From an uncultured delta proteobacterium (GTDB lineage Bacteria > Desulfobacterota > Binatia > UBA9968), in assembly GCA_963771465.1 (NCBI GenBank), contig CAVYTU010000019.1:32001-96000 (forward strand): a stretch of DNA of 64,000 nucleotides, in the 5' to 3' direction. The first letter of the stretch is position 1; each line of letters opens with the position of its first letter. Below are positions 1 to 8,085 of this stretch, one piece after another. The notes beneath the pieces are model-generated. The model searched no databases. It was given only the letters and a program-made list of their open reading frames with translations, and had not been told where the DNA came from. The translations under genes and the position numbers were made by a program.

Positions 1-344
1 ATTATATGAACGTTAAAGAGTACCGAGGCGCCGAAGGCGAGATCGTTTCTGAGCATTACGCCTTCCTGGTAACCGAGGCCGAATTCGACGAGATCTTCGC
101 GCGCATTCGGGAACGGCATCTGCCCTATTGGGCCGATCCGGGTCGCAGCCAGCGGGACCAGATCAACCAATGGGATGGCGGCCGCGGGGTCTACTTCGAA
201 GATCCCAACGGTCATATTCTCGAAGCGATCACGCGACCCTACGGCAGCGGCGGCACGACGGCGGCGCGACCGCACCCGTTGCTCGCGGCAAACGGGAACC
301 GCGCACCTGAAAACCGCCACAATGATTCAGACCGGCAGAAATGA
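1..344 (+). CDS. VOC/glyoxalase family protein (5' partial)
   Basis: HYAFLV...GGRGVYFEDPNGHILE motifs; frame is open to the window edge. Confidence 0.8.
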   Translation, partial: YMNVKEYRGAEGEIVSEHYAFLVTEAEFDEIFARIRERHLPYWADPGRSQRDQINQWDGGRGVYFEDPNGHILEAITRPYGSGGTTAARPHPLLAANGNRAPENRHNDSDRQK

Positions 345-417
345 AGGCGCTGATATGGAGACGCCGAACGGCCCCGATCAGTGACCCGCATGAGAGACTT
401 CATGAGCGAAAGATACC

Positions 418-555
418 TCAAGGGATAGCGGGTTTCTTGACGAGGCTTTCGGTAACGAATGGGAAATTGTCCGCGAGCCAGGCGTCGAGCCCGCCTTCGA
501 GCGGGCGGACTCTGGTGATTCCTGCTGTCTCCAGGTGTTCGACAAACCGTCTCAT
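418..555 (-). pseudogene. 45-aa ORF carrying a duplicated rhodanese C-terminal fragment
   Basis: MRRFVEHLETAGITRVRPLEGGLDAWLADNFPFVTESLVKKPAIP*; ATG overlaps the cupin stop (TGATG); nearly identical to the 3' end of the 2165-3514 gene. Confidence 0.6.
429..523. repeat. 95-bp direct repeat, copy 1 (copy 2 at 2176-2270)
   Basis: cgggtttcttgacgaggctttcggtaacgaatgggaaattgtccgcgagcca...ggtgattcct at both sites with few mismatches. Confidence 0.95.
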
Positions 556-995
556 CACTGTTTTGGCACAGTTACAGTCTGTCCAACGATACCCGCGTAA
601 AACACGACAATTTCCGCGGGAACGGTTCCTTCATTAATTCCATAGTGGAGTGTGTTCACCACCTCAACTATAGGATCTCCCGCCTTCAAACGCAGCACTT
701 TCCCGTCCGTGGTCTTGACCGTGAGTTGCCCGCTCATCAGCACGCCGGCATTGATCACCGGATGACTGTGAGTCTCGAGCCGCGCGCCGGCAGGTATACT
801 GATTTTCAGAATCGTGATCTCGGGCTGACCTTGCGGATACGGAACCAATAACTTCCCGTCCCAGCTCTTGCTACTCCTGACCAGTTCCTTGACGGAGATG
901 GAAGCGTGGTTAGCCTCCTCCTTGGTCGCACAGCTAAACTGAATGAGAACAAGGACGGAGAGGATTGCGAAATTTCGAACGGTTTCTCTTGTCAT
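555..995 (-). CDS. Cupin domain protein, probable lipoprotein
   Basis: Signal ending FSC; KSWDG...HSHPVINAGVLMSGQL...H cupin motifs. Confidence 0.8.
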   Translation of the reverse strand: MTRETVRNFAILSVLVLIQFSCATKEEANHASISVKELVRSSKSWDGKLLVPYPQGQPEITILKISIPAGARLETHSHPVINAGVLMSGQLTVKTTDGKVLRLKAGDPIVEVVNTLHYGINEGTVPAEIVVFYAGIVGQTVTVPKQ

Positions 996-1097
996 CGAGG
1001 TGCCTCTGAATCGTGTGTAGATGTTTCGCTTTGACCAGCGCCACCTCGAACATCGACTCGTCGGTCTGACGCCGGAGTAGCTGGCCGGGCGCGCTGT

Positions 1098-1886
1098 TCA
1101 GTCGACCACCGATCGATCGGGAACGAGCGACCGCTGGACCCACTGGAACATCCGCCATCCGACGGGGTCAGGGGCGAGTGTCGACGCTGCAACCGAAGCG
1201 GCCTCGTCAGAGATCGGTCGCCCGTTGGGCGCTTTCACGTGGACCTCAGCCACCCGTTCGGCCATCACAAACCATCCGACCGATTCCTCCACCGACCGGC
1301 CGACCGTGAGCAGGCCGTGATTGCGCAGGATGCAGAACTTCCTGTCGCCGAGTGCCGCGGCGATGCGCTTGCCGCCATCGATCGAAAGCACCTCCACCTC
1401 CTCATCGTCGAAGAGGGCCTGGTCGAACACGAAGGCACACGCCTCCTGACTGAGCGCCCGAAACGGCTCGACGTTGGCCGACCATGGCGTGCCGAAGGCG
1501 GTGTGGGTGTGAGATGCGCTCACGATATCGGGACGGGCAGCGAGCAGCGGATGGTGGATGTAGTAGCCGGCCGTGTTGACGGCGCCGGTGGCGTTGCCGT
1601 CGGCATCCTTCACTTCGCCGCCGGGCCCGACCAGCACCAACTGGTGGACCGTCGCCTCGGCGAATGGGATACCCCAGTCGAGCAGCCAGAAGTGGTCGGT
1701 CCACTCGGGGTCACGGGCCGATACGTGGCCGTCGCCGAGCATCCCCCACCGCATCGCGCCGAAGATGCGGTATCCAAGCGCACACATCCGTTTGCGATGC
1801 GCCCGTTCGTCGGCAACCGAACGGACGGTGCCGTAGGGCTCGACCCCGTTGAACGGTGGATAGGGACTCGTTGTCATGTCATCCAT
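1098..1886 (-). CDS. Class II aldolase/adducin family protein
   Basis: GHVSARDPE, IHHPL, SHTH, ILRNHGLLTVG motifs. Confidence 0.9.
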   Translation of the reverse strand: MDDMTTSPYPPFNGVEPYGTVRSVADERAHRKRMCALGYRIFGAMRWGMLGDGHVSARDPEWTDHFWLLDWGIPFAEATVHQLVLVGPGGEVKDADGNATGAVNTAGYYIHHPLLAARPDIVSASHTHTAFGTPWSANVEPFRALSQEACAFVFDQALFDDEEVEVLSIDGGKRIAAALGDRKFCILRNHGLLTVGRSVEESVGWFVMAERVAEVHVKAPNGRPISDEAASVAASTLAPDPVGWRMFQWVQRSLVPDRSVVD

Positions 1887-2033
1887 GGTACCTCGCGCAA
1901 TTCAGTTGGGTGTTTCTGCATGGGATATTTCAAACACACCGCGAATTCCAGTCAACTCTCCGACGATTGACACGCTCGCCAGTTCAGCGATATTGCTGCG
2001 AGCAGAAAAAAGGTTGTTTCAATTTCCTGTACC

Positions 2034-2071
2034 GGAGAGGCGCTGTGTTAAGCAAAGAAGACAACGAATTC
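2034..2071 (+). pseudogene. 5' stub of a Rieske oxygenase gene
   Basis: GGAGAGG RBS then GTG-LSKEDNEF, like MLSREENEL (57594) and MLPREENDM (29406); similarity stops after about 9 codons. Confidence 0.35.
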
Positions 2072-2164
2072 GAGTGCACGGAGCATGGGTCAGGAGCAAG
2101 GGTCAGGTGTATTTTGACATTGCGGATTGTTGGCGGCACCAGCGGCTCCGAAAAATACCTTCTC

Positions 2165-3514
2165 TCAAAGGACAACGGGTTTCTTGACGAGGCTTTCGGT
2201 AACGAATGGGAAATTGTCCGCGAGCCAAGCGTCGATCCCGCCTTCGAGCGGGCGGACCCTGGTGATTCCTTTAGCTCGTAGCAGCAGCGCCACACGGGCG
2301 CTGGTCGCTTCGTTGGGTCACGAACAGTAGAGAACGACGTCGCGATCCCGGGGAATCTCTCCGTGGCGCTCTTCGATCTCTTCCATAGCTATACGAAGGG
2401 CACCCGGGATCATCTGAGGAAACGCCTCGATATCCATGGGCTGGCGCAAGTCCACGATTGAAAGGTTTTCTCCTGCGGTGAGTTTGTCCATGAGTTCTTT
2501 CGGCGTGATGCGCGCAATCCGCAGCCGGCGAAGAAAGCGTCGCCGCTGGATGAACTTCCACAAAACATAAGCTGCCAAACTTCCGGCCAGGACTGCGACG
2601 AGCCAACCGCCCCAGCGCAGTGCGATCCGCTCGAGTTGATCGCCGAGCATCAAGCCCAAGCTCGTGACGGTGACGACCCAGAGGAATCCGCCCAGGGAAT
2701 CGAAGATCAGGAAACGTCGCACGGGCATGCGAAAGACTCCCGCTAGAGACGGTGCTGCGGTATTCAGACCGGGTATAAATTTGGCAACGAGCAAAGAACG
2801 GACGCCATGCCGGACGAAAAGGTTCTCAGTCCGCCGCACGCAGGAGTCCGGTTCGAGAGAAATGCGGCACAGCAGCTTCAGTATGCGCCCGCCACGGTAA
2901 CGGCCTAGAGAGTACCAGAACAGGTCAGCCAAAATAACCGCGATGAACGCCAAGGTTACCGCGAACGTCAAATTCATTTTACCGGCGCGGGCCAGCGCGC
3001 CGGCCGCGATCAACAGAGGAGCAGCCGGGATAGGCAGACCAAGCTGTTCGAGCAGCACCCACCCGAACAGCACGGTGTAGCCGTGTCTGATCAGGAAGTC
3101 GGCAGCTTGTTCCAGGCTCAAATCCCGGAAAGCCTGCGGCACTAGGCTCGCGAAAAAGAAACTAAGGACAGTCAATATCAGCGCCGCAACCGCCGATTCG
3201 ACATAGATCCAACGAGCCTGGGAGCGGAGTCGTTTGTCGACGCTTTCATCGCCGACGGACTCTTCGGTGCCGTTCATCTTGCGCGCGCCGCGCGCGGCCA
3301 AAGCGACTCAGGTCTTTTTGCGAGCCTGGGAAACAGCGAGAGTTCCTATCCAGAACGGCAGAAATAGCGTCGCATACCACCCGCGGCTTACATCTGCACG
3401 CGCGAAGACGACCGCCAGGACGACGCCCAGCGCGAGCATGGCGACACCCATGAGCTGGCGCTTACGGATCTCCTTCGGCCCGATATTGGCGAGCTCTGCT
3501 TTTCCGACGTTCAT
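2165..3514 (-). CDS. Predicted double-selenocysteine membrane protein: N-terminal membrane domain (T-U-V), DedA/VTT domain, rhodanese domain (C-S-U-P); 449 aa
   Basis: ORFs 3308-3514 and 2318-3301 are in one frame; readthrough gives QARKKT-U-VALAARG and VVLYCS-U-PNEATSARVALLLRAKGITRVRPLEGGIDAW, completing the rhodanese fold; DedA motifs EQLGLPIP and AKFIPG; hairpin after each TGA. Confidence 0.85.
2176..2270. repeat. 95-bp direct repeat, copy 2
   Basis: Matches 429-523. Confidence 0.95.
2280..2317 (-). promoter_or_regulatory. Bacterial SECIS-like hairpin for the TGA at 2318-2320
   Basis: Minus strand: TGA, 14 nt, then CAGCGCC-cgtgt-GGCGCTG (7-bp stem, GU in loop). Confidence 0.7.
3278..3307 (-). 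promoter_or_regulatory. Bacterial SECIS-like hairpin for the TGA at 3308-3310
   Basis: Minus strand: TGA, 12 nt, then GCGCGC-ggc-GCGCGC with a CTT/AAG lower stem. Confidence 0.55.
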
Positions 3515-3613
3515 CGAAAGCCACCGGTACTTTTGTTCATTATTTCGATCTCCGCTCAGGTTTCACCTTTAATAGCCGACACTCGTACATCCGACCGGAG
3601 AGCGCAAAGCCAG

Positions 3614-3870
3614 CTTAATTCTCTGCAGCGCACGGTTTACTTTGATGGATGACAATTAAGAAAGTTGGCAAGCTGGGAAGCGAGATAACCCCTGCTGCAA
3701 AACGGCTTCGCGGGATGAGTTGATCGCGGGCCTTTACTACTTTCCCCAGCCGGCCCTTGCGGAGCAATATCTCGGCTGAAAGTCCCGACTGGCTGGCTAC
3801 GCTCTTAAGCAAACCCTTTAACGATACGCGCCGCGAGACGGTGGCGCAATTGTTTCTTTGGCAATTTTCT
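3614..3870 (-). pseudogene. Decayed C-terminal HTH of a Y1/REP-associated tyrosine transposase-like gene, copy 1
   Basis: Frameshifted LKSVASQSGLSAEILLRKGR...KARDQLI/REAVLQQGY/LASQLANFLNCHPS; direct repeat of 4824-5082. Confidence 0.6.
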
Positions 3871-3952
3871 CGCGAACCCACTGCAACACGCCAACGCCGC
3901 GTTCATGCCGCGCAATCCCGCCTGGCGTTCGCGGCTTCTCGAGACTGCCTTG

Positions 3953-4639
3953 CTAAAATTTGGTGATGTCCCTGAATCCGTCGGTCACAGATTGCAGGTC
4001 TGCGAACGCTTCCGGTAGATTTAGTAAGAGATTCGTGCCTCCAGACGATACAGTGCCTGCTATGTTGGCCTCACGAAAGGTTCCCTTGTTCTGTTCGTGT
4101 GTAATGCTTCCCGGTGTTCTGATATAAAAGCGATTCCTGGTTACTGCGGGCTGGCTAGTTGCCGTCCAGGTGAGGTCTACGGAAACATCGAAGGAGTTTC
4201 CGGACACAGAATCTATGAGTTCCACGGTTTTAGTCAGTATGGCGGACTCGAGCTTCTTGTCGATTTGAAATTCAGAGGCCGAGACGGCTATGGTGCTCTC
4301 AGCGCTTAACACTAGCTCATCCTGGCAGATATCGACTCCCTCGATAAATACGTCGACCGCGGACCCGTTGGCCGGCTTGCCGGGACCGTCACGTTCGGTG
4401 CCCTCAGAGGCCCGCACACCTACGCTGGTGAGGATACATCCGTCGACACCGTCAAAAAATGCGATCGCGACCAACCCCTTGAATCTAAATTGGGTCTTCT
4501 CTGCCGCCCAGGAGGATACCGGCGCGGTGAAAGCCGTGAGAATAAAAACCAGCGCAAGAGCCGCAAACTTCGTTAGTCGCATTTTTGTCTTTTGCCGTGA
4601 CAGGAACTTCACATCGAAATGTAAATTCATTCGATTCAT
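3953..4639 (-). CDS. Hypothetical secreted protein (true start probably the MRLTKF Met at 4582)
   Basis: Signal peptide ending SSWA; beta-rich mature region with two Cys. Confidence 0.7.
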   Translation of the reverse strand: MNRMNLHFDVKFLSRQKTKMRLTKFAALALVFILTAFTAPVSSWAAEKTQFRFKGLVAIAFFDGVDGCILTSVGVRASEGTERDGPGKPANGSAVDVFIEGVDICQDELVLSAESTIAVSASEFQIDKKLESAILTKTVELIDSVSGNSFDVSVDLTWTATSQPAVTRNRFYIRTPGSITHEQNKGTFREANIAGTVSSGGTNLLLNLPEAFADLQSVTDGFRDITKF

Positions 4640-4768
4640 ACTCCTCGTGCATTAAAGATTTTCGAGTAGCTATCACGTTCGCGTTTGCTTGACCAGGCAA
4701 GTTGGCGGTAATTTTATGCCGAGGAATTGCTCTAGCGCGTGACGGCCGAAATGTTTTTTTCAACTCCG

Positions 4769-4792
4769 TTGACATTTAGATATGCGTGTCAA
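4769..4792. promoter_or_regulatory. TTGACA-N12-TGTCAA palindrome (operator or divergent -35 boxes)
   Basis: ttgacatttagatatgcgtgtcaa upstream of the 3953-4639 gene. Confidence 0.35.
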
Positions 4793-4823
4793 TCTGTGCG
4801 TCAGACTTGCCTAAGTCTACTAA

Positions 4824-5082
4824 CTTAATTTCTCTGCAGCGCGTGGCTTACGTTTGATGGATGACATTAAAGAAATTTGGCAAGCGGGGAAACGAGATAA
4901 CCCTGCTGCAATGCGGCTTCGCGGATGAATGGATCGCGGGCATTTACTACGTGCCCCAGCGCCGGCCCTTACGCAGCAATATCTCGGCCGAAAGTCCCGA
5001 CTGGCTGGCTACGCTCTTGAGCAAACCCTTTAGCGAAACGCGCCGCGAGACGGTGGCGCAATTGTTTCTTTGGCAATTTTCT
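4824..5082 (-). pseudogene. Decayed transposase C-terminal HTH, copy 2
   Basis: Homologous to 3614-3870; frameshift and in-frame TAA; followed by the AGACTT-gcct-AAGTCT hairpin at 4803-4818. Confidence 0.6.
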
Positions 5083-5224
5083 TAATGAATCGCTCCGGTC
5101 CGGAAATAGTCTGTTCATGAGAATCAGGCGGCAAAAAAAGACTCCGCGCTCGAATGGATGTTTGCCGACTTCGGCACGAGTCCGTTCGCCCAGAACCGTT
5201 CGGAAGTCGTGCTCATCGCTGCCA

Positions 5225-6187
5225 TTATTTGCGCACGCGCATGCCGAGCTTGGCGTCCCATTGAAGAACCTTGTCGCTCTTGGGCAGGGGCGCTTCGGCA
5301 ACTTCGCCGACTGACACGCCGTATTTCCAGTCCGCCGGGCAGATGGCGATGTAGCGCGCGTAGCCGCCCAGGCCGCCGGCGAATTTCGGATAGCCGATAG
5401 CGATCAAACAGCCTTTCTCGGGGACTTTGTCCAAGTTCGTGACCCCTTCCGCCTGGGCGTAGCCGTTGTGCATCAGCCAAGCTTCTCCTTCGAGGTTGGG
5501 AGTGGTGTCGGTGTCGAGAGGCTCGTGACCGTGAAATAGGATGTGACGTTCCTCGTGGAGAAATTGCAGCGCTTCCAACGACACGCCGGGAAAAATGGTC
5601 TGGCTTGCCAGCGACGGATCGGGCCAGCGCTTCGACCAATCCGAACGCACCATCACCACCGAACCGGCTGGAATCTTGCCATTCCGTTTCTCCCAGCTCT
5701 CGATATCCGAGCGCCAGAGATGATAGCCGGGATCTTTGGCCACCTGATCGACGATCGAAATTACCGCCAGCGGGCGCACGGCATAGGTCGCCGGCAGTTC
5801 GTCAATGGCGGGATACTCCGGCGCCCAGTGCGCCGGCGGATCGAGCTGGGTGCCGAATTGGTCGGTGGGCAAATCGTAGTGCGTCGCCTCGAAGCCGTCC
5901 TTTGTGTAAGTGTAAGGCTGCCTGGTTTCAGGATTGATCGTCGGAGCGAATATCGCCGGCGCAAAGCCCTTCCACACCGGGATCGATGGCGTAAGAGTGT
6001 GTGTCAGATCGATGTACTTGGCTCCTTTAAGGGAACGATCGTAGACACGCCAAAGGTCGGACCGCGCTGAACCCCGCGATTCAGTTTTTTGGGCCGACGA
6101 CGCTTTACGCCCACAACCTGTCGTGAAGACCATCAGACCCAAGACGAGAAACAAGAGAAATGACCTAAATGCCATGATTGCACCCAT
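5225..6187 (-). CDS. Cyclase family (kynurenine formamidase-like) lipoprotein
   Basis: IDLTHTL, QFGTQLDPPAHW, GHEPLDTD, EGVTNLDKVP; lipobox TTGC. Confidence 0.88.
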   Translation of the reverse strand: MGAIMAFRSFLLFLVLGLMVFTTGCGRKASSAQKTESRGSARSDLWRVYDRSLKGAKYIDLTHTLTPSIPVWKGFAPAIFAPTINPETRQPYTYTKDGFEATHYDLPTDQFGTQLDPPAHWAPEYPAIDELPATYAVRPLAVISIVDQVAKDPGYHLWRSDIESWEKRNGKIPAGSVVMVRSDWSKRWPDPSLASQTIFPGVSLEALQFLHEERHILFHGHEPLDTDTTPNLEGEAWLMHNGYAQAEGVTNLDKVPEKGCLIAIGYPKFAGGLGGYARYIAICPADWKYGVSVGEVAEAPLPKSDKVLQWDAKLGMRVRK

Positions 6188-6347
6188 AAAAAAACTCTCC
6201 GCTGCATATTGTTGTTTTGTCTTGGCAGAAACAGTTCGAGATTGCGCATTGATGGCTCGTCCTAGGAGTCTCGACTATCGCCGTTTTTGGCAGGATGGTA
6301 GAGCCATCAATTACAAATAATCTCTCGATTCGCAATGGACGCAATTG

Positions 6348-6384
6348 AAAAAAACGAAAGGGCGGGTTAACGACCCGCCCTTTC
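6348..6384 (-). terminator. Rho-independent terminator
   Basis: GAAAGGGCGGGT-taacg-ACCCGCCCTTTC hairpin with an A-tract on its left. Confidence 0.65.
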
Positions 6385-6723
6385 ATCTTGCCACAAAAGC
6401 TCGCGCTTCGAATTTATGCTTTTCCCGCCGCCTTCAATCCTTTCAATACTGAGCGGCAGTTTGTTGGCCGGTTTTTGCATTGGGTTTTCCAAGCCAGGAA
6501 GCGAGAAGGCGTCGCAAGATTTTTTTGGTACATACTTCAGATTCCCTCTCTATCTGGCATACTTTAATAACAGTCGAAAAAATTTTCAGCACGACTGTCC
6601 TAAAAGCGCTCGCTCATTCGTCGCGCTATTGAGTATTAAGTGAGCCAATCGGTGCCTGGCGGGCGAATGCAGCAGCAATGTCTCCAAAACTATTTTGGCG
6701 AAAAGCTTAAGGAGGTTTGAACC

Positions 6724-7458
6724 ATGGCACAGGAGAAAATCAATGCGACGCGTCGACAAACCAATTTGCCGAACGAATCTGACCCATATCAGTTCAAGCG
6801 AGAAGAACTTCGACTGGCGGAAATTGAGCTCATGCGCCAGCGAGAGCGAGTAGCAGAACTTCGCCGCGAGCTGCCGCAAGGCGCGGCGCTTCAGGATTAT
6901 GCATTCGAAGAGGGTCCGGCGAATCTCGATGCCGGCGACACGCCGATTCGCACCGTCCGCCTGAGCGAACTGTTCAGCGCGCCTAATCGTTCGTTGGTCG
7001 TCTATCAGTTTATGTTCGGAAAGAAGAACACCACGCCGTGCCCAATGTGCACGCTCTGGATCGATGGTTGGAATGGTGTCGCCCACCATCTGGCTCAGAA
7101 CGTCGACGTTGCGATCGTGGCCGCGGCCGATCCGATGGCGTTGCGCGCACATGCACGCGCGCGCGGGTGGCACAGGCTTAGGCTGCTGAGTTGCGGCGCC
7201 AACACGTTCAAATACGATCTCGGCAGCGAAGACCGCGAGGGAAATCAGGATTCGACCATTTCCGTTTTCACTCGAGATACTGACGGAACCCTGCGCCACT
7301 TCTACTCAATTCATCCGTCTTTCTCGAGCGACATCAAAGAGCGCGGTATCGATCTGTACTGTCCCGTTTGGCATATCTTGGATCTCACTCCACAGGGGCG
7401 CGGTGATTGGATCGCGGACCTTGGTTACGGCACGAACGTGAGTGCGGCGCGTCGTTGA
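6724..7458 (+). CDS. DUF899 family thioredoxin-like protein
   Basis: AELRRELP, LSELF, CPMC, LDLTPQGR; GGAGG RBS. Confidence 0.9.
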   Translation: MAQEKINATRRQTNLPNESDPYQFKREELRLAEIELMRQRERVAELRRELPQGAALQDYAFEEGPANLDAGDTPIRTVRLSELFSAPNRSLVVYQFMFGKKNTTPCPMCTLWIDGWNGVAHHLAQNVDVAIVAAADPMALRAHARARGWHRLRLLSCGANTFKYDLGSEDREGNQDSTISVFTRDTDGTLRHFYSIHPSFSSDIKERGIDLYCPVWHILDLTPQGRGDWIADLGYGTNVSAARR

Positions 7459-7906
7459 ATGTCGTCGTAGCGACCCACGCAGACTGAGCATTGGAGCTTG
7501 AGCACGAAGTCGCCAACATCAAATTTACGGTATCCATATCTTTAGGCCGAACTTTTCCTGCCGGAATGCGGGTATGTGTCAGATCTTCTCCTTTGAGAAG
7601 GATATTGACCAATGGATGGCCGAAATCATTTCGGGGTGGACTGAAGTGGAATTTATTCCCAAGCCGATTGATGCACCGGCGTTTCTAGCGGCAGTTGATA
7701 AGCTCGCACGTAAATCAAAGTAATTATTCCCAAACGATTTTCCGCCAGATGATCGCCGCTGATCAAATAACGATGGACAATCTTGACCTGATTATTTATG
7801 CCGACCGATCGTATAAGGCAGAATTGTCATCGCGTGGTTCGAGCACATCTTCCATAATGCGAACGTAATTCCTTAACACTTCCCGGAAGCATCCATCAAA
7901 GAATGG

Positions 7907-7922
7907 CGGCACGATGCATGCT
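7907..7922 (+). promoter_or_regulatory. Putative sigma54 promoter
   Basis: cGGcacgatgcatGCt, GG-N10-GC, upstream of 8086/8256. Confidence 0.5.
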
Positions 7923-8085
7923 CTGCTCTCGTTGGTCGGGGCAGAGAAGACACATCTTCGTGTCACTTCTTGACTAAAGACTTCTTGCCCCGGCACTACT
8001 TGCACCTACGTTTGGAACCCATTCATGAAATCCGACTGCATTGTGCTGCGGACTGCGCTCGTTTGAAGGAACTGACAGGCCGTTC

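Follow-up and report, generated by a model that had tools for sequence, protein, structure and literature searches.

Does a minus-strand stretch that gene callers turn into a 68-residue peptide, a shortened DedA protein and an uncalled tail in fact hold one gene, read through two internal TGA codons? The stretch, 2165-3514 (-), lies in a 64,000-nucleotide (nt) window of contig CAVYTU010000019.1 (positions 32,001 to 96,000; assembly GCA_963771465.1) from an uncultured delta proteobacterium of the Binatia, and coordinates given without a contig label refer to this window. A sequence-only reading had proposed that it encodes a 449-residue protein with two selenocysteines (Sec, U) that couples a membrane domain, a DedA domain and a Sec-containing rhodanese domain, and every test that we ran backed this core claim. 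We conclude, at a probability of roughly 0.85, that one gene occupies 2165-3514 (-) and encodes an inner-membrane selenoprotein of 449 residues, into which two selenocysteines are inserted, each at a UGA codon with a hairpin of its own further along the coding sequence. The two-Sec interpretation is based on the retention of both TGAs in related copies, Cys at the same sites in relatives, the hairpins, codon-type conservation and the presence of Sec machinery in the genome.

Translation of the minus strand over 2165-3514 produced one frame of 449 residues, broken only by TGA at codons 69 and 399, with the flanking peptides QARKKT-U-VALAARG and VVLYCS-U-PNEATSARVA, all as the sequence-only reading had stated. 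The two open reading frames (ORFs) from which it had built the gene, 3308-3514 and 2318-3301, both appear, as separate ORFs, in a mechanical ORF listing of the window. It had also anticipated that standard annotation would split and truncate the gene, and this is what databases contain: gene calls for the fused gene are pieces of 319-333 residues named "VTT domain-containing protein" or "DedA", and 21 of 57 short N-terminal pieces stop at ..[KR][KR]T, including fragments ending in ...KKT. The rhodanese domain is incomplete without the uncalled tail, since the Pfam Rhodanese match (PF00581; 48.9 bits, gathering threshold 22.2) runs from residue 337 to 432 and spans the second TGA.

We searched the whole protein library with HMMER, which returned 17,086 proteins at E <= 0.001. 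The best 150 representatives were DedA-rhodanese proteins that start near query residue 136. At site 399, 56 of these carry C-x-C-P-x-[ED], 51 end exactly after C-x, three have E, S and S, and 40 are fragments or lack the motif. The family alignment thus agrees with the earlier claim that DedA-rhodanese fusions carry a YCxCPNE loop, with the TGA placed at its second Cys. When the N-terminal 130 residues served as the query, the matches included stand-alone proteins of 134-135 residues (P0149, P0152 and P0153) that read ...EKT-C-VALAARN... and align with the window protein on both sides of the first TGA, through the third hydrophobic helix. In a profile search of this stand-alone family, Cys occupies the U69 site in 116 of the 120 best proteins. 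Homologs at both sites, 69 and 399, therefore have Cys or TGA.

The stand-alone protein, of about 125 residues, is the same domain as the N-terminal part of the fused protein, and its gene has either TGA or a Cys codon at the corresponding position. Scanning a single genome for each species yielded 33 loci, 21 of them fused and 12 stand-alone. The stand-alone loci (L044-L055) come from records labelled Myxococcales/Polyangiaceae, Gemmatimonadales, Thermoanaerobaculia, Chloroflexota and Anaerolineaceae; 11 of the 12 have TGA at the site (..REKT-TGA-VALASRGQRD..) and one, L046, has TGC. SelA was present in all four tested genomes with the TGA form, and was not found in the single genome with the Cys form, a genome whose completeness is not established.

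Among the fused loci of the same scan, codon 69 is TGA in all 20 that reach it and codon 399 is TGA in all 15 that reach it in frame; six loci (L026, L030, L031, L033, L040 and L043) are cut by a contig end or out of frame. We also searched 41 genomes: the one that contains the window, 24 from the same genus and 16 from the same order. Six of them hold a full-length match in which both TGAs are in frame, namely the window's own and, among the 40 others, G018, G015, G006, G011 and G017; these last five belong to the genus, and their copies are 81-92% identical to the window protein. The unpublished genome G005 enters only as one row of this search and as locus L010, and no conclusion depends on it. 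Two partial copies ended by contig edges, in G021 and G013, keep the TGA wherever they reach it. The copies read QAR[KR]KT-TGA-V[AVF]L[AT]ARG and VVLYCS-TGA-PNEATSARVA. Several fused loci of the species scan come from the same genomes as the 41-genome search, and the two counts are not independent. Both TGAs are thus retained in independent assemblies, which counts against their being errors or strain-specific nonsense mutations.

We aligned the codons of the window gene with those of 12 fused loci and counted, region by region, the codons that vary at positions 1, 2 and 3. Upstream of the ATG, 19/20/18 of 20 codons vary, and after the third TGA variation is complete at 29/29/29 of 29. Between these points the counts are 29/27/46 of 68 for codons 1-68, 35/25/42 of 64 for codons 70-130, 83/39/183 of 268 for codons 131-398 and 12/11/33 of 50 for codons 400-449. 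Because the third-position bias is present within the frame and lost outside it, coding-type constraint begins at the ATG, runs across both internal TGAs and ceases at the third TGA.

Each internal TGA is followed by a hairpin identified by folding, starting 12 nt after the first TGA and 14 nt after the second. These distances match those given by the sequence-only reading, which also had a G opening each loop; this is the case for the first loop (GGC), while the second opens with C and has G in second place. Bacterial Sec insertion elements have an accepted range of spacing between the UGA and the loop. All 15 bases of hairpin 1 are invariant in 13 of 13 fused orthologs, even though the hairpin covers five four-fold degenerate codons and the flanking codons do vary at third positions. 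The stand-alone TGA forms have a 7-base-pair hairpin with loop GGUCA at the same distance from their TGA, in which 93.5% of cells pair, with one compensatory pair and two G-U changes. In the 13 orthologs, the stems of hairpin 2 are invariant and a single loop base varies. When seven distinct CxU rhodanese genes, taken from the genus and from a neighbouring family, are compared, four of the seven pairs of hairpin 2 show compensatory changes; the covariation score of 0.395 compares with 0.120 +/- 0.057 for shuffled alignments, was reached by none of 500 shuffles and is equalled by no slid register. Folding showed no comparable hairpin behind the third TGA (-9.6 kcal/mol). An Rfam scan of window positions 1-8000 at E <= 10 gave no match at either hairpin, only unrelated weak ones. 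A separate candidate, in which Gly in Sec forms as opposed to Asn in Cys forms, six codons past the site, would be a footprint of the loop, was refuted, as most Cys forms also read AARG.

The earlier reading had pointed to the Sec machinery as a check, and the genome contains it. The genes selA (C14:197541-198638, 536.9 bits), selB (C14:198805-200613, 358.6 bits) and selD (C14:200711-201637, 376.3 bits), the last with an in-frame TGA of its own, adjoin one another at G000:C14:197541-201637, and a tRNA on C13 with anticodon TCA is typed as Sec. The coordinates of the gene and its parts are collected in Table 1.

Table 1. Parts of the fused gene and candidate Sec insertion elements, in window coordinates
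Feature	Position	Strand	Remarks
Whole coding sequence	2165..3514	-	449 codons plus terminal TGA (2165-2167); ATG start at 3512-3514
TGA codon 69, read as selenocysteine U69	3308..3310	-	TGA/Cys alternation among relatives
TGA codon 399, read as selenocysteine U399 (CxU motif)	2318..2320	-	TGA/Cys alternation among relatives
Third TGA, true stop, codon 450	2165..2167	-	Conservation collapses downstream
N-terminal membrane domain, residues 1-125	3140..3514	-	Three predicted helices
DedA/VTT domain, Pfam residues 162-287	2654..3031	-	PF09335; wider membrane region about 131-330
Cys-pair loop C216...C225 (LLCRISLEPDSC) inside the DedA domain	2840..2869	-	Specific to the DedA-rhodanese family
Rhodanese domain, residues 337-432, active-site stretch VVLYC-S-U-PNEATS	2219..2506	-	PF00581
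Hairpin after TGA1, candidate Sec insertion element	3281..3295	-	GCGCGC-GGC-GCGCGC, folded
Hairpin after TGA2, candidate Sec insertion element	2285..2303	-	CAGCGCC-CGUGU-GGCGCUG, folded

The N-terminal domain carries the motifs NIGPKE..KR, FLPFW.G and Q..KKT-U-VALAARG, with U69 just past helix 2; Pfam and NCBIfam contain no family that matches residues 1-130. A profile of the stand-alone family matches 1012 database proteins at E <= 0.001, which are without a family name. Of the 120 best stand-alone proteins, 113 have a second Cys, within the motif C-I-P-N-I-G-P, and 85 have exactly two Cys; the fusion replaces the first Cys of the stand-alone family and reads ELANIGPKE. A structure model of the stand-alone family was confident (mean predicted local distance difference test score, pLDDT, 93.7; predicted template modelling score 0.82), with helices at 17-43 and 48-70, the Cys/Sec at 73, a short helix, a beta hairpin at 81-90 and a last helix at 94-123. 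We assigned no fold to this domain because its structural matches were uninformative: Foldseek against the PDB gave none at E <= 0.001 (best 1.7), and the best of 48,161 chains compared by VIA-align, an Mrp subunit, reached Z 7.0 with a root-mean-square deviation (rmsd) of 3.9 over 84 residues, values that this tool classes as a common helical arrangement. ESM Atlas neighbours of a stand-alone member fall in "hypothetical protein" clusters that have no common Pfam family. Judged from its sequence, the three-helix domain appears to be a new selenoprotein family, missing from the published catalogue discussed below. Sec/Cys alternation of the kind seen in the stand-alone family usually marks a redox-active or chalcogen-binding residue.

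We considered Escherichia coli YgaP, which joins a rhodanese to a two-helix membrane domain and resembles the window protein, as far as the description available goes, in pairing a cytoplasmic rhodanese with a small helical membrane domain. Aligned with each other, the YgaP-like membrane domain and the N-terminal domain both show a basic motif towards the N-terminus and, beyond helix 2, a conserved Cys. They differ in that the domain order is reversed here, DedA stands in between and a third helix is present. Homology between the N-terminal domain and the YgaP-like domain (PF11127) was not supported by sequence or profile comparison. A PF11127 search with the window's N-terminal domain gave no match, Cys relatives scored 14-15 bits against a cut-off of 25.3 (E 0.02-0.05), and hhalign gave the N-terminal family a probability of 0.78% against PF11127.

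The surroundings of the stand-alone genes offer some further observations. A gene for a DoxX-like membrane protein lies directly 3' of the stand-alone gene at six of the 12 loci (L045, L047, L048, L049, L050 and L051); these six are closely related to each other, and the DoxX link is a lead only. DoxX has been linked with a rhodanese in mycobacteria. At L045 a DSBA-like gene follows, and NmrA-like genes are found nearby in the DoxX-bearing loci. No DedA or rhodanese gene occurs within about 4 kb of the 12 stand-alone loci. One TGA-form copy, L047:1321-1635, has a TAA or TAG stop after ..RRQAR, ahead of the third helix.

The middle part of the window protein matches PF09335 (VTT/DedA) at 59.6 bits, above the cut-off of 33.9. 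It carries a Cys pair whose motif, C-x(4-7)-P-[DENS]-x-C, is present in 114 of the 150 family representatives, with the loop taking the form C-[RK]-x-S-L-E-P-D-x-C; C216 is at least 90% conserved in the family alignment, and the pair is absent from an ordinary DedA paralog aligned from the same genome. The AlphaFold model of the full-length protein is confident for its DedA and rhodanese parts, with pLDDT above 90 over most of the DedA domain. PDB matches of this model by Foldseek were rhodaneses only, with E down to 2e-5 and an rmsd of 1.5 over 105 columns. The N-terminal domain of the model is of low confidence, so the distance between U69 and U399 cannot be read from it. Counts of K+R versus D+E are +5/-2 over residues 1-20, +10/-5 over 63-102, +9/-3 over 204-240 and +8/-1 over 321-340. 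The positive-inside rule is well established, and applied to these counts it would place U69, the C216/C225 loop and the rhodanese domain all on the cytoplasmic face.

What might such a protein do? We tentatively propose, as possible rather than probable, a cytoplasm-facing sulfur/selenium relay on an atypical DedA domain, an idea suggested by the Cys-pair loop in most of the family, by K245 and N251 in place of Arg and by the charge counts. The Sec of the rhodanese would take up a sulfane sulfur or selenium atom, which would then pass along the Cys/Sec sites to or from the DedA membrane domain. The protein would thereby handle sulfur or selenium species at the membrane, and not undecaprenyl phosphate. 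The broader proposition that a widespread family of small membrane selenoproteins (C-I-P-N-I-G-P ... K-T-[U/C]-V-A-L-A-A-R-G), fused in Binatia to a Cys-pair DedA domain and a CxU rhodanese, moves or relays sulfur or selenium seems to us doubtful at present. If true, it would give a DedA subfamily a non-lipid role and explain in biochemical terms why DedA is fused to rhodanese. As an alternative to lipid-carrier flipping, a DedA subfamily that is lined with Sec and poor in arginine is concrete and testable. The labels "redox or metal-binding" and "flippase/transporter", which the sequence-only reading had attached to two of the domains, were inference.

The same gene with the same two selenocysteines could also work in another way, with its DedA part acting as an ordinary flippase of undecaprenyl phosphate or another lipid and the Sec/Cys modules sensing redox state or sulfur and regulating it. 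The best NCBIfam matches of the middle part are indeed UptA and DedA models, and, in the passages available of a 2023 analysis, DedA-rhodanese fusions are placed in COG0586, whose members are proposed undecaprenyl phosphate flippases (PMC10127716). All of these equivalog matches are below their cut-offs, and those to the UptA models NF052604 and NF052605 fall far short (63.9 bits versus 250 and 46.1 versus 300). According to the same passages, phosphate is likely bound by two Arg in the second re-entrant helix (PMC10127716). An alignment with the ordinary DedA paralog of the same genome, rather than with E. coli YghB, places K245 and N251 at the positions of these two Arg, so that the pair expected of UptA is replaced by K245/N251. 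Together with the family's own conserved Cys pair, this makes an ordinary flippase unlikely in our estimation.

Several observations weigh against the two-Sec gene or the role that we propose for it, and should be borne in mind. Site 399 is E or S in three of 59 full-length DedA-rhodanese representatives, and the Sec site of the stand-alone family is W (three) or R (one) in four of the 120 best matches. The Trp in three stand-alone proteins (EKTWVNLA.., among P0329-P0445) is possibly TGA translated as Trp by a pipeline. One further protein, P0122 (92 residues, on a 760-nt contig), has Leu at site 69 and further unusual changes close by. The fused copies all have the same hairpin 1, which therefore offers no covariation, and the covariation of the stand-alone hairpin is weak, its score being reached by 23 of 500 shuffles. 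The best NCBIfam match, NF041203, covers residues 332-437 at 79.8 bits, below its cut-off of 115. Alignments to PDB rhodaneses are split on the catalytic Cys, with U399 aligned ungapped in 6mxv and 3iwh, and C397 aligned with a two-residue gap in 5ve3 and 3tp9. The N-terminal segment of about 130 residues has block mean pLDDT values of only 36-72 in the full-length model. No neighbouring gene is conserved around the fused gene, the sole exception being a DUF899 gene at two of 21 loci, and the relay mechanism draws on sequence features and the charge rule alone.

Could the first TGA be a true stop? The locus would then hold two genes, one for a 68-residue membrane peptide and, behind it, one for a DedA-rhodanese protein with its start at M80 or at the TTG at 3301, with Sec at the second TGA or at neither. 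Gene callers give exactly such pieces, and an ATG does occur 11 codons past the first TGA. Yet the stand-alone Cys homologs run through the site and align for about 55 residues beyond it, including the third membrane helix, and the stand-alone TGA forms likewise continue. Coding-type variation persists over codons 70-79 as well as over the whole of 70-130, and the frame is retained in the translated copies. These results make a stop at codon 69 very improbable.

Still less can be said for TGAs that arose as nonsense mutations, assembly errors or gene decay. Broken copies do exist, namely one with a linker frameshift in G019 and the out-of-frame loci L026, L033 and L040, but both TGAs recur in copies from independent assemblies, at 81-92% identity and with the amino acids around them little changed, and Cys and TGA alternate at exactly these sites in distant relatives. 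We also compared the locus with contigs from four public sequencing runs, which cover it patchily. Among the differences listed, none falls at 3308-3310 or 2318-2320; many of the contigs break near 2324. A contig from an RNA library spans 3267-3415, over the first TGA, with one letter different, and carries no verdict on expression. At least half of the sampled words from a 1.5-kb stretch around the gene were found in nine of 24 listed public runs, mostly labelled soil. A changed genetic code in which TGA encodes an ordinary amino acid and no selenocysteine is made is exceedingly improbable as well, since its one sign, the W in three stand-alone database proteins, may come from pipeline translation of TGA as W, whereas the gene itself closes at a TGA with a collapse of conservation behind it, selA, selB, selD and a TCA-anticodon tRNA typed as Sec are all in the genome, and relatives have Cys, which usually takes the place of Sec, at the aligned positions.

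How much of the two-Sec fusion is new? The rhodanese domain has the fold and the L-Y-C-x-U stretch (here VVLYCSU) of the family NF041203 (rhodanese_LYCAU), named "rhodanese-related (seleno)protein", and in both a hairpin lies equally far behind the UGA. NF041203 proteins are soluble, about 126 residues long and have one Sec, while in the present gene the domain makes up the C-terminal third of a membrane protein that is 449 residues long and contains a second Sec. Because it scores under the curated cut-off, we treat the C-terminal domain as a relative of NF041203 and not as a member of that equivalog. The CxU rhodanese is listed as "form 3" among 119 prokaryotic selenoprotein families in a 2026 review (PMC13188914), to judge from the parts of it available. 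Within Table 1 of that review, which gives the 119 families and does not extend to the source supplements, there is no DedA entry and none resembling the N-terminal family, and in the available text the terms DedA, YgaP, DUF2892 and "membrane protein" all have 0 occurrences (PMC13188914). The table does include TsoB (NF045694, rhodanese/DsbD fusion-like), which by its description is, like the window protein, a membrane-linked rhodanese fusion with two Sec (PMC13188914). Its motif is UxxxxU, and NF045694 is not among the NCBIfam matches of the window protein at E <= 1.

DedA-rhodanese fusions are themselves in print: the passages available of the 2023 analysis record them in COG0586, call the link to rhodanese unclear and do not mention Sec forms (PMC10127716). 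The Cys forms share with the window protein the two-domain core (query residues of about 136-440), the YC-x-C-PNE loop and the C...PDxC loop. The common form differs in starting at about query residue 136, without the N-terminal domain, and in having Cys rather than Sec in the forms called full-length. Our literature searches (selenoprotein/rhodanese/DedA; DedA/selenocysteine; Binatota/selenocysteine) returned no DedA selenoprotein, judged by the titles listed. The second Sec and the two-domain core are thus of already known kinds, and the three-part, two-Sec fusion appears to be new. The earlier view that the three-part fusion was undescribed holds for the N-terminal Sec domain and the two-Sec architecture; it does not extend to the CxU rhodanese, which is catalogued, or to the fusion of DedA with rhodanese. 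Because annotation splits the gene, this architecture and the candidate selenoprotein family go unseen in soil metagenomes.

The genome of the window (G000) has further rhodanese genes with in-frame TGAs, at C15:1030886-1031185, C15:847492-847734, C3:14470-14814 and C14:230146-230463. Two of the other rhodanese genes of the genome are CxU forms, and one of these two encodes a DedA-rhodanese paralog that lacks the N-terminal domain. In a further form, Y-U-A-C-P, Sec takes the place of the first Cys and not of the second, and one more rhodanese gene is of the T-U-G-T-G form.

Some irregular copies of the fused gene were also recorded. The copy at L009 (G019:C10:49337-53341) shifts frame at a G run in the linker that joins the N-terminal domain to the DedA part, which could be an assembly error or a natural split. 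Fused loci L025, L027, L033 and L037, at 70-86% identity, come from records named Chloroflexota, Verrucomicrobiia, Udaeobacter, Acidiferrales and delta proteobacterium. The L025 protein is identical to that of G006, a genome placed in the window's own genus, and the mixed phylum names probably reflect binning or labelling and not spread of the gene.

In the window, the fused gene is flanked downstream by a pair of class II aldolase and cupin genes and upstream by unnamed ORFs, a cyclase and a DUF899 gene. A gene for an NMT1-type binding protein lies near the fused gene at five of 16 loci in varying orientation, from which we conclude nothing. A remnant copy of the last 37 or so codons of the gene is found at window 424-540 (-), reading ..GITRVRPLEGGLDAWLADNFPFVTESLVKKPAIP up to a stop, directly 3' of the cupin gene. 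The true 3' end of the gene and its remnant duplicate are thus separated by the aldolase and cupin genes (555-1886), and extra 3' fragments like this one are also present for G015 and G019.

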